Assembly (NCBI GenBank): GCA_036725605.1
Contig: DAIMDW010000007.1
Location: 88,388 to 152,387, forward strand
Reading direction: 5' to 3'
Origin: a bacterium
GTDB taxonomy: Bacteria; Lernaellota; Lernaellaia; Lernaellales; Lernaellaceae
Length of the DNA: 64,000 nucleotides
Below are positions 30,820 to 32,010 of this stretch, in pieces (position 1 is the first letter of the stretch; each line of letters opens with the position of its first letter). The notes below the pieces were generated by a model. It did not search any database. It saw only the letters and a list, made by a program, of their open reading frames with translations, and was not told the origin of the DNA. The position numbers were made by a program, and so were the translations under genes.

Positions 30820-32010
30820 ATGAGGAAACTTCACCTGCTGTGGTTGATCGTGTTGACGCTTTGGGCGACGGGTGCGGCCGCGTCCGTTCACGAAGCGCAG
30901 TACCGCGCGCACCCGCCGACGCTCCGTGCGCCGGCAGCGGCGTCGCCCGCGTCCTTCACGCCCGCCGCGAACGGCGACCGTTACGTGGTCGGCTACTATC
31001 CGCATTGGGCCGACGATTTCGCCGACATCCCCTTCGATCTGCTCGACGAGGTGATCTACTTCGGCGCGCAGGTCGAGCTCGACGGTTCGCTGAGCGAAAT
31101 GAACGGCTGGCCGCCGGCCGATTTGATCGCCGCCGCGCACGACGAGGGCTGCCGGGTGACGCTGTGCCTGATCGACTTCTCCCCGAGCGAGCAGCGCGAT
31201 CTGCTCAACAGCGCGAGCCGCCGCGCCGCGTTGATCGACAATCTCGTCGACGCCGTCGTCGAGGCCGGGGCGGACGGCGTGAACTTCGATTTCGAGGCGC
31301 TGCCGGTCGACGTGAAAAGCCAATTCGTCGCCCTGGTGCAGGATGCGGCGACGGCGCTGGCCGAACAGATCGACGCGCCCGCCGTTAGCGTCGCCACCCC
31401 GGCGATCGACTGGGCCGGCGCTTACGACTTCGACCAGCTAGCCGCGGCCGGGCGGTTGTTCGTCATGGCCTACGACTACCATTGGAGTTCCAGCGACCCG
31501 GGGCCGATCGCGCCGCTGTATGGCTCGGACCGCTGGGGCGACTACGCCTACGACTGGACGATCGACGATTACCGCGCCTACATCGCGCCCTACGGAACCG
31601 ACCGCGTGATGCTCGGCTTGCCGCTGTACGGTTACGACTGGCCGTCGCTCGACGCTTCCGTGCCCGGCGAGGCGACCGGCGCGGCCGACGCCTGGACCAT
31701 AGTCGGCGCGTGGGACTTTGCGGCGCAGCAGGGCGGCGGCGACTGGGACGATGCGTCGTCCACGCCGTACCTGATTTACCAGGACGGAGCGCAAACGCGG
31801 CAGTTGTGGTACGAGGACCTCGACTCGCTGGCCTTGAAAATCCAGTTCGCTATCGACGAGGAAGTGGGCGGCATCGGTTTTTGGGCGTTGACCTACGAGC
31901 GCGGCGACGAGGATTTCTGGCAGCTCATCGCCGACTATCGCGCCGGCGGCGACGTGGGCGACGACGATTTCTTTGACGACGACGATGACGACGATGGGTG
32001 CGGCTGTTAG
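30820..32010 (+). CDS. Secreted glycoside hydrolase family 18 (chitinase-like) protein ending in a poly-Asp-GCGC tail.
   Basis: GGTGGAGG RBS. Signal peptide MRKLHLLWLIVLTLWATGAAAS. GH18 catalytic motif DGVNFDFE (DxxDxDxE). C-terminus …GDDDFFDDDDDDDGCGC*. Confidence 0.7.
   Translation: MRKLHLLWLIVLTLWATGAAASVHEAQYRAHPPTLRAPAAASPASFTPAANGDRYVVGYYPHWADDFADIPFDLLDEVIYFGAQVELDGSLSEMNGWPPADLIAAAHDEGCRVTLCLIDFSPSEQRDLLNSASRRAALIDNLVDAVVEAGADGVNFDFEALPVDVKSQFVALVQDAATALAEQIDAPAVSVATPAIDWAGAYDFDQLAAAGRLFVMAYDYHWSSSDPGPIAPLYGSDRWGDYAYDWTIDDYRAYIAPYGTDRVMLGLPLYGYDWPSLDASVPGEATGAADAWTIVGAWDFAAQQGGGDWDDASSTPYLIYQDGAQTRQLWYEDLDSLALKIQFAIDEEVGGIGFWALTYERGDEDFWQLIADYRAGGDVGDDDFFDDDDDDDGCGC

Follow-up and report, generated by a model that had tools for sequence, protein, structure and literature searches.

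Within the 64-kb window considered here (the whole stretch of contig DAIMDW010000007.1 that was analysed, with a G+C content of 64%), two genes for unrelated enzymes, a GH18 glycoside hydrolase and a gingipain-like C25 cysteine peptidase, encode proteins that end in a run of aspartate residues followed immediately by Gly-Cys-Gly-Cys and a stop codon (Table 1). The initial annotation had pointed to this shared D(n)-GCGC ending, and both endings could be read in the sequence, the glycosidase terminating in ...GDVGDDDFFDDDDDDDGCGC and the peptidase in ...LTDDDDDDDDDDDDDGCGC (an excerpt given also as ...DDDDLTDDDDDDDDDDDDDGCGC). The acidic linker of the peptidase has the layout D6-TGA-D4-TG-D4-TG-D3-TG-D4-LT-D13. 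Both proteins begin with a signal peptide, which is MRKLHLLWLIVLTLWATGAAAS, of the signal peptidase I (SPI) type, in GH18 and MRRTILLTLTILLLGVCSAHA in the C25 peptidase. When all open reading frames (ORFs) of the window were checked, the D(n)-GCGC-stop ending was found on these two only, their genes lying 8.2 kb apart; at the DNA level, the D4-GCGC-stop pattern occurs twice in the window and not once in 100 dinucleotide-preserving shuffles.

Table 1. Features of the window referred to in the text; positions are those of the window.
Feature	Position	Strand	Details
GH18 glycoside hydrolase gene	30820..32010	+	Pfam PF00704, 1.1e-31; stop TAG 32008..32010
GH18 tail	31960..32007	+	DDDFFDDDDDDD (31960..31995) + GCGC (31996..32007)
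C25 (gingipain-like) cysteine peptidase gene	40214..42367	-	Pfam Propeptide_C25 + Peptidase_C25 + Peptidase_C25_C; stop TGA 40214..40216
C25 tail	40217..40363	-	49-residue acidic linker + GCGC (40217..40228)
Myxosortase-family CPBP/Rce1-like intramembrane protease, compact subtype	8614..9276	+	220 amino acids; PF02517, 3e-21
Predicted lipoprotein, mirror-image layout	19082..19993	-	...LSLALAC, then GDDDDDDDDNDADDDDDDDTGDDDTTDDDD (LALAC-GDDDDDDDD)
PD40 beta-propeller protein	23342..24916	-	N-terminal ...LLLVDC-DRGGNG-DDDDDDD, non-canonical lipobox (Asp at -1); C-terminal (DDDT)n ...DDDTVD-stop
GT4 fused to radical-SAM/SPASM	90..2726		
NodU-like carbamoyltransferase, split	2723..3349, 3342..6029		N-terminal part fused to radical-SAM/SPASM
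Radical-SAM/SPASM protein	6033..7136	-	
GT-C-type membrane proteins (PMT_2, TMEM260-like, PTPS_related), concentrated here	21284..23329, 38406..40142, 45502..47862, 53725..55677, 55674..57407, 57404..58939		
Lnt, apolipoprotein N-acyltransferase	61200..62939	+	TIGR00546, 279 bits (cutoff 133)
ORF between FadL-like and TonB-dependent receptor genes	50933..51394	+	About 123-153 amino acids; ends ...ESKDVPLGAALLAPLFLAIALRRKD; no Pfam match

Translation of the two tail genes probably starts at ATG 30820 and ATG 42367, slightly inside the longest ORFs (30775 and 42430). The C25 start is matched by identical proteins in other assemblies and the GH18 start is backed by homologue search; the same 396-amino-acid GH18 gene model was also called in two metagenome loci (L101 and L102), and a GH18 orthologue of 90% identity (P0121) ends in DDDDDGCGC. 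An assembly artefact in the GAC/GAT-rich DNA, which had been named as a possible source of the ending, is unlikely because three assemblies made independently of one another (JGI 3300010350, on a 245-kb contig, JGI 3300025702 and ENA ERZ27264001) encode an identical 717-amino-acid C25 protein with the same neighbours, because the contig runs on beyond both tail stops, and because a convergent rhodanese gene reaches with its end into the GH18 stop, with no space for a hidden extension; a reading frame cut off by chance is ruled out on the same grounds. Between the two tail genes (32402..34960 on the minus strand, 36809..38431 and 35279..35860 on the plus strand) there are genes for a penicillin-amidase-family protein (PF01804, 2.6e-198), a type I phosphodiesterase/nucleotide pyrophosphatase, a MoeA-like fragment and ClpP. 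None of the genes lying there carries the tail, and they do not form an operon devoted to the signal.

The ending is not confined to the two window proteins and occurs across the lineage, as about 175 further ORFs in six genomes and 99 metagenome loci carry such tails. The first scan covered one genome per species and used DNA encoding D4-GCGC, with the stop codon left out of the pattern. Its listed matches included at least about 50 ORFs with long DDDx-repeat linkers and the stop directly after GCGC; in Myxococcota genomes, DDDDGCGC was followed by about eight residues, a hydrophobic helix and RRRR-stop, and the remainder consisted of non-coding chance matches and His/Cys-rich metal transporters. 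The bare-GCGC ORFs among these listed matches came from six uncultured genomes only (DAIPLW01, DAINPV01, JAOSJX01, CAZPJD01, CAYSHR01 and CAXXWT01), and the JAOSJX01 contigs are labelled FR-FEN-1099. The phylum Lernaellota, formerly FEN-1099, was described from the anoxic zone of a lake; the paper describing it reports many proteases and glycosidases and does not mention a C-terminal tail. The second scan, in metagenomes, employed the stricter D6-GCGC-stop pattern and yielded 99 loci (825 kb) with 114 acidic Cys-terminal ORFs. The number of tail loci per source, given as lower bounds, was at least 19 for DAIPLW01, at least 13 for DAINPV01 and at least 26 for the metagenome sample Ga0116164, which contributed 26 loci to the second scan.

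Comparison of 51 distinct tail ends revealed all four Gly codons at both Gly positions, both Cys codons, and TGA, TAA and TAG as stops. Since synonymous sites differ freely, the tail is not a DNA-level repeat, and recoding can be ruled out as all three stop codons serve; on the evidence of codon usage, the tail is under selection at the protein level. No transmembrane (TM) helix was found to be encoded 3' of the tail stop in any frame, the three flags being signal peptides of the next gene. A Cys residue lies within the last five positions in 51 of 54 and 114 of 119 Asp-rich C-termini (two sets), and the tails end in GCGC in 50 of 61 and 93 of 114 cases, the variants retaining at least one Gly-Cys. 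The description of the ending as identical was thus correct for the two window proteins and too narrow for their relatives, which also end in GCGS, GCGG, GCGM, GGCA, GGCS, GGGCG, GCCGG, CCGG, CGGVVF and other forms; orthologues of the C25 peptidase keep the acidic linker and differ in the last residues (GCGM, SGGCA, SGGCS, GGGCG, CCGG). The constant element is therefore an acidic linker followed by Gly and a Cys near the C-terminus. The median acidic segment is 56 residues long (range 0-118), and its composition is 53% Asp and 10% Thr; that such Thr-rich acidic linkers might be targets of O-glycosylation is speculation.

The proteins bearing the tail are diverse, comprising S8, C25, M14, M28, M12 and trypsin-like peptidases, GH43, GH18, purple acid phosphatase, and proteins with PKD, FG-GAP and BNR domains. 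By a heuristic call, signal-peptide-like N-termini are present in 33 of 44 complete tail proteins and in 51 of 153 neighbouring ORFs (p = 1.5e-6). The proposal that a tail conserved on unrelated secreted enzymes represents a sorting or modification signal has been strengthened by these results, with dozens of signal-peptide-bearing hydrolases and adhesins tagged per genome, and by the nature of what stands at the corresponding position in homologues from other phyla, namely a C-terminal domain (CTD) of the type IX secretion system (T9SS), a dockerin, a MYXO-CTERM signal or hydrophobic archaeal tails in the case of C25 and GH18. One of the few Asp-rich C-termini without the Cys (L190, 696..1706, minus strand) ends in ...DDSGGGYA, where otherwise near-identical tails in L014 (2709..3812) and L064 (2100..3158) end in ...DDSGGGCA; this looks like a natural Cys-to-Tyr variant, which could serve as a loss-of-signal comparison.

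A signal with a related signature has already been described, contrary to what was assumed initially. GCGC is the published signature of MYXO-CTERM, a tripartite C-terminal signal in which the motif bearing the invariant Cys (the 'GCGC motif') is followed by a TM helix and then by an Arg cluster (Haft, bioRxiv 10.1101/2023.06.07.544157). According to the working model, an enzyme not yet identified lipidates the Cys, myxosortase, a CPBP/Rce1-like intramembrane protease, cuts distal to the last Cys, and type II secretion (T2SS) delivers the lipid-anchored protein to the surface (Guo, Haft & Wall, PMC11980579). The Cys residues are required for anchoring, and tagless TraA is released into the medium via T2SS (PMC11980579). 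MYXO-CTERM is the only Cys-dependent C-terminal sorting signal that has been studied experimentally, the group on the Cys and the enzyme adding it being still unknown (PMC11980579). With the cut modelled distal to the last Cys, a mature MYXO-CTERM protein is predicted to terminate in ...GCGC-COOH, and this is the end that the window genes encode directly.

The relation between both kinds of tail can be followed most closely in the GH18 family, whose members were anchored at the conserved stretch GFWALTYE...W, with which the catalytic domain ends, 22 of 120 homologues being inspected. In all 22, an acidic linker of 38-99 residues is followed by G-C-G-C or G-C. No residue follows the last signature Cys in the window protein and in P0121; 2-15 residues follow the Cys in Lernaellota-type relatives (CCGG, CGQVVF in Ca. 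Lernaella stagnicola, CGGVVF, CGGNAFF, CGGAEVYAVFVK, CGGSALAGSLLRSLGK), and 25-28 residues, forming a TM helix and RRRR, in the full-form homologues of Myxococcota. The full form with Cys, TM helix and basic cluster is present in 72 of the 120 homologues, one of which has been named a MYXO-CTERM protein by JGI. In this anchored comparison, the tail is positionally homologous to the MYXO-CTERM linker and GCGC signature in the GH18 orthogroup. In one tail-rich genome, at least one conventional tripartite tail (GGSGGCGG-spacer-LLVMMLPAMMGLALL-RRKK) occurs alongside the bare ones.

Like MYXO-CTERM, the tail stands at the extreme C-terminus of signal-peptide-bearing proteins, contains an invariant-Cys signature (mostly GCGC), occurs in a genome that encodes a myxosortase-family protease, and is carried by many proteins per genome (3-73 in the case of MYXO-CTERM). 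No TM helix follows the signature, since no residue follows the last Cys, the tail has no Arg-rich C-terminal cluster, and no sorting-domain model of NCBIfam release 20 matched the full proteins or the isolated window tails, even at E <= 10. In a control with TM-bearing DDDDGCGC tails, four of five scored 25-30 bits with TIGR03901.2 (cutoff 20). As the TM helix, the Arg cluster and the TIGR03901 match are all missing, the tail shares with MYXO-CTERM its signature, position, cargo logic and enzyme family, yet it is not a member of that class as defined. What is new is therefore the form that ends at GCGC with neither TM helix nor Arg cluster, the GCGC signature itself being known already; nothing relevant on a TM-less Cys-terminal signal or a polyAsp lipoprotein linker was found in the searched literature or in NCBIfam release 20. 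We consider it highly probable that the tail is under selection as a sorting or anchoring signal and shares homology with the MYXO-CTERM signature.

A separate observation concerns metagenome-assembled genomes labelled 'uncultured Rickettsiales' (loci L054 and L055 from CAZXHG01, L024 from CAYTBN01), which contain textbook MYXO-CTERM tails with polyAsp linkers, scoring 29-30 bits with TIGR03901 (L054, L055). This suggests that either the Rickettsiales label is wrong or the range of MYXO-CTERM is wider than stated.

The window protease was identified as a member of the myxosortase family, as it scored 126.3 bits with the Mrt_core model NF040914 (cutoff 100) and remained below the equivalog cutoffs of MrtP (192.8/250), MrtC (143.1/195), MrtX (128.6/180) and MrtZ (77/325). 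Its translation contains intact CPBP catalytic motifs, EExxxR (PEELFFRG), FxxxH (FALAH) and HxxxN (HTLAN), and a protein 94% identical to it (P0243) is named 'myxosortase family intramembrane protease' by NCBI. Four orthologues of 44-50% identity likewise pass the core cutoff and fail the equivalog cutoffs. Among more than 14,000 proteomes, NF040914 matches were reported in Myxococcota and Bradymonadales only, always in species rich in MYXO-CTERM, and the myxosortase gene is unlinked to the genes of its cargo (Haft). We found no protease gene within 825 kb of tail-flanking DNA, and no tail genes within 10 kb on either side of distant Mrt orthologues in a contig scan. No solved structure in the PDB matched the Mrt-like protein by sequence.

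Clustering of about 900 ORFs from 144 tail loci revealed no recurrent non-cargo family beside the tails except for paralogues with a lipobox and polyAsp. In the tail loci, lipobox signal peptides are followed by Gly or Ser and polyAsp/Thr (LVASC-GGDDDDNDNDD, AVGC-GSDDDDD, FSAC-GDDDDDDNDD, SAGC-TC-GDDDDD), and the window contains a predicted lipoprotein of the same, mirror-image layout. At least five Asp residues lie within 18 residues of the Cys in 32 of 58 lipobox-like N-termini of the tail loci. The C-terminal tail was found on none of the 32 lipobox-polyAsp proteins and on 116 of 553 other proteins (Fisher p = 0.001). In one family with beta-propeller repeats, ten members have the lipobox-Cys-polyAsp N-terminus and one has an ordinary signal peptide together with C-terminal polyAsp-GCGC (BLASTP 6e-14). 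PolyAsp beside Cys is thus a standard module of the lineage, found at either end of a protein and never at both.

The N-terminal lipobox Cys is a well-established site of lipid attachment. In Bacteroidota, a short acidic run following the lipidated Cys (C-SDDDD) is sufficient for surface export (PMC5080379). Because of the mirror-image lipoproteins and this acidic export signal, we take the polyAsp of the tail to be a putative stalk or cue for export, and the Cys at the C-terminus to be a candidate attachment site. The presence of Lnt, a housekeeping enzyme, in the window indicates that the host has a triacyl lipoprotein pathway of the diderm type. The PD40 beta-propeller protein combines polyAsp after a non-canonical lipobox with an Asp-rich C-terminus, which is one of the three, among 54, devoid of a terminal Cys. 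Another ORF of the window, located between genes for FadL-like and TonB-dependent receptor proteins, ends with a TM helix and a basic cluster and has no Cys; it could bear a different tripartite sorting signal.

On the whole, we lean towards viewing D(n)-GCGC-COOH as a minimal derivative of the MYXO-CTERM class that lacks the TM helix and with which Lernaellota-type bacteria tag hydrolases and surface proteins exported by the Sec route, dozens of them per genome. According to this model, the N-terminal signal peptide would carry the protein across the inner membrane by the Sec route, the C-terminal Gly-Cys would be the last part to leave the translocon, and one or both Cys thiols would be modified at the membrane surface, most likely with lipid. 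As the gene already ends at the presumed myxosortase cut, the GCGC-terminal proteins would have no TM helix to be removed, and the window protease might serve the TM-bearing minority and perhaps substrates with short extensions. The polyAsp/Thr segment of 20-120 residues could form an extended acidic stalk, by analogy with the lipoproteins described above, holding the enzyme off the membrane and possibly acting as a cue for surface export. Whether the tail works through lipidation of Cys and surface anchoring is a point on which we regard the evidence as evenly balanced. Of the roles that had been suggested for the Cys pair, lipidation is the best-supported option, as far as comparison with MYXO-CTERM and lipoproteins can indicate, and a metal-chelating pair has lost ground, since a single Cys suffices in many variants.

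Several facts weigh against such a mechanism. A modified terminal Cys has yet to be seen, and lipidation is unproven even for MYXO-CTERM, whose transferase is unknown. It is unclear how a soluble periplasmic C-terminus devoid of a TM helix meets a membrane enzyme, and by analogy with tagless TraA, proteins lacking the helix might be released instead of anchored. No recurring candidate transferase was found in about 1.2 Mb of tail-flanking DNA. Co-occurrence of the protease with the tail was demonstrated directly only in this genome and a close relative. Moreover, the assignment of the tail genomes to Lernaellota derives from the labels of contigs and from named homologues, signal peptides and lipoboxes were called by regular-expression heuristics, and the loci were picked for having tails, so that the proportions derived from them are biased.

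The least improbable of the alternatives, although an unlikely one, is that there is no anchor at all: the enzymes would be released, their polyAsp would bind divalent cations or minerals, and the Cys pair would bind metals or form disulfide or thioether cross-links. In its favour, the tail contains about 53% Asp, CXC motifs are able to bind metals, and free thiols persist in anoxic settings, as the source environments apparently are, to judge from the lake zone of the phylum's description; the release of TraA devoid of its tag through T2SS (PMC11980579) would also fit, as would the fact that no transferase gene was found near the tails. Mineral binding, however, hardly explains why the same polyAsp linkers occur directly after a lipobox Cys and why the two layouts are mutually exclusive. 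The tail Cys is positionally homologous to the anchoring Cys of MYXO-CTERM, homologues elsewhere have cell-attachment modules at the tail position, and variants with a single Cys (GGCS, GGCA) argue against a chelating pair. The suggestion of mineral or cation binding by polyAsp, made when the tail was first noticed, found no support in the analyses made here, the mirror-image lipoproteins pointing to an acidic stalk or export cue.

It is also unlikely that all variants, GCGC included, are substrates of a CaaX-like two-step process, in which the first Cys (or the only one, in endings such as GGCS, GGCGG and CGGVVF) is lipidated and the compact myxosortase-family protease trims the residues that follow, much as -aaX is taken off by Rce1. 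This would account for relatives ending in C plus 1-15 residues, often small and then aliphatic or aromatic (CGQVVF, CGGVVF, CGGNAFF, CGGAEVYAVFVK), and for the retention of an apparently active myxosortase-family enzyme, as far as its intact motifs can indicate. Short C-terminal extensions that follow a lipidated Cys are removed by Rce1 and MmRce1. On the other hand, GCGC is by far the commonest ending and its last Cys is conserved as Cys, which would not be expected of a residue to be discarded; in addition, the model of Haft places cleavage distal to the last Cys.

The possibility that the terminal Cys is joined to a non-lipid envelope polymer (polysaccharide, lipopolysaccharide (LPS) or S-layer), as T9SS cargo is joined to anionic LPS (A-LPS), by nearby GT-C/PMT-like or radical-SAM/GT4/carbamoyltransferase enzymes, seems to us very doubtful. 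Several homologues of PMT_2/TMEM260-like membrane glycosyltransferases are indeed encoded in the window, one of them directly downstream of the C25 gene, and the cluster of GT4, radical-SAM/SPASM and carbamoyltransferase genes adjoins the protease gene in at least five lineages. None of these candidate families, however, recurs beside tail genes, the housekeeping genes DXS, TlyA and XseB are equally syntenic with the protease, so that the linkage may reflect lineage gene order, and the radical-SAM genes match no specific curated family, radical-SAM enzymes being cytoplasmic. Finally, a functionless tail (a decayed MYXO-CTERM relic, a low-complexity expansion, or an assembly or annotation artefact) is effectively excluded, because even though poly-GAC/GAT is slippage-prone low-complexity DNA and the linker varies between 0 and 118 residues, the terminal G-C-G-C-stop persists in over 140 paralogues whose synonymous sites vary freely, Cys is retained in 165 of 173 Asp-rich C-termini, the tail is restricted to signal-peptide proteins (by heuristic calls), and it is found in three independent assemblies and in none of 100 shuffles.

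Some genes near the tails or the protease deserve a mention in their own right. Genes for MBOAT O-acyltransferases lie beside tail genes in four loci (L031, 3723..5012, minus strand; L013, 1..903; L094, 6979..7998; L180, 7148..8575); in L094 and L180 the gene is directly downstream of the tail gene on the same strand, and in L031 it is paired with a DltD/AlgJ-like gene. As the modifying enzyme, MBOAT was set aside, as there are only about two independent contexts, one of them convergent and DltD/AlgJ-like-paired, which makes it a weak lead for an extracytoplasmic acyl donor. A multi-TM protein of 578 amino acids encoded downstream of C25 was rejected as well, having a sub-threshold PMT_2 match only and recurring only as a near-identical copy. 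Several of the GT-C proteins of the window, one of which is encoded directly downstream of C25, have C-terminal TPR repeats, like the eukaryotic TMTC/TMEM260 O-mannosyltransferases. The cluster adjoining the protease gene consists of a GT4 fused to radical-SAM/SPASM, a split NodU-like carbamoyltransferase and a further radical-SAM/SPASM gene; it is conserved in L104, L105, L106, L108 and L109, and in L104 and L105 the protease gene shares 4 bp with the last radical-SAM gene of the cluster. A specific match of the cluster radical-SAM genes was sought among curated families and not found. The cluster was not retained as a partner of the protease, the housekeeping genes downstream being just as syntenic, and the linkage may be lineage synteny only.

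Returning to the TM-less derivative of MYXO-CTERM as the preferred interpretation, we tentatively propose one step further: that a bare Gly-Cys(-Gly-Cys)-COOH might be lipidated outside the cytoplasm with neither a TM presentation helix nor sortase-type cleavage, polyAsp acting as the recognition or export element, which would make it a periplasmic counterpart of eukaryotic CXC/CaaX lipidation. If this is true, neither the TM helix nor the myxosortase step is indispensable to MYXO-CTERM, and comparison of Lernaellota with Myxococcota could lead to the Cys-modifying enzyme. More than 100 natural proteins ending at the signature Cys constitute a natural experiment, implying that the Cys motif, and not the TM helix, is the functional core. 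The myxosortase system would also be extended to another phylum, providing a second, distant set of genomes for profiling the missing transferase. D(n)-GCGC-stop is predicted to be a transplantable tag that should work without myxosortase. A practical consequence is that the surface and secreted proteomes of these abundant degraders of anaerobic digesters and sediments are annotated without a localisation signal, because TIGR03901 misses such tails.

The tail may be set beside several known systems. In form, the CXC-COOH ending is the same as that of some Rab proteins, and many CaaX proteins have a polybasic region upstream of the modified end. The likeness to CaaX and Rab proteins extends to a Cys within the last four residues, to a protease of the CPBP/Rce1-like family, and to short variants resembling C-x-x-aliphatic. 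In contrast to these cytosolic substrates, the tail proteins carry Sec-type signal peptides and are predicted to be exported, so that modification would take place outside the cytoplasm, and the run upstream is acidic; no prenyltransferase was found among the window genes scanned. The lipoprotein export signal (LES) of Bacteroidota (C-SDDDD or C-x-K-(D/E)2) resembles the tail in having an acidic run beside Cys, and the same genomes possess lipobox-Cys-G-polyAsp N-termini. LES is, however, N-terminal, 4-5 residues long and tied to Lgt/Lsp, whereas the tail is C-terminal, mirrored and tens of residues long, its lipidation being presumptive. In terms of sequence layout only, the arrangement is thus mirrored at the tail C-termini and of normal orientation on the 32 lipobox N-termini.

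Signals such as PEP-CTERM with exosortase, GlyGly-CTERM with rhombosortase, JDVT-, Synerg- and CGP-CTERM with MrtJ, MrtS and MrtA, as well as the T9SS CTD, likewise place one tag on many unrelated exported enzymes of a genome. The tripartite ones all have a TM helix and a basic cluster, whereas the tail has neither; the T9SS CTD is a folded domain of about 80 amino acids, whereas the tail is of low complexity with about 53% Asp, and neither Por_Secre_tail nor any other Pfam or NCBIfam model matched it. The closest relation is to the MYXO-CTERM/myxosortase system of Myxococcota and Bradymonadales, with which the tail shares a disordered acidic linker, the signature G-C-G-C that contains the essential Cys of MYXO-CTERM, a homologous position in GH18, dozens of signal-peptide cargoes and an unlinked protease gene. 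It differs in that TM helix, Arg cluster and TIGR03901 match are absent, the gene stopping at the presumed cleavage point, in a polyAsp run that is far longer and purer, in the host phylum (Lernaellota-type), and in a compact protease of about 220 amino acids falling below the MrtX, MrtC and MrtP equivalog cutoffs. The kinship to MYXO-CTERM makes the tail less categorically new, yet more informative, as an 'already-trimmed' version of that signal.

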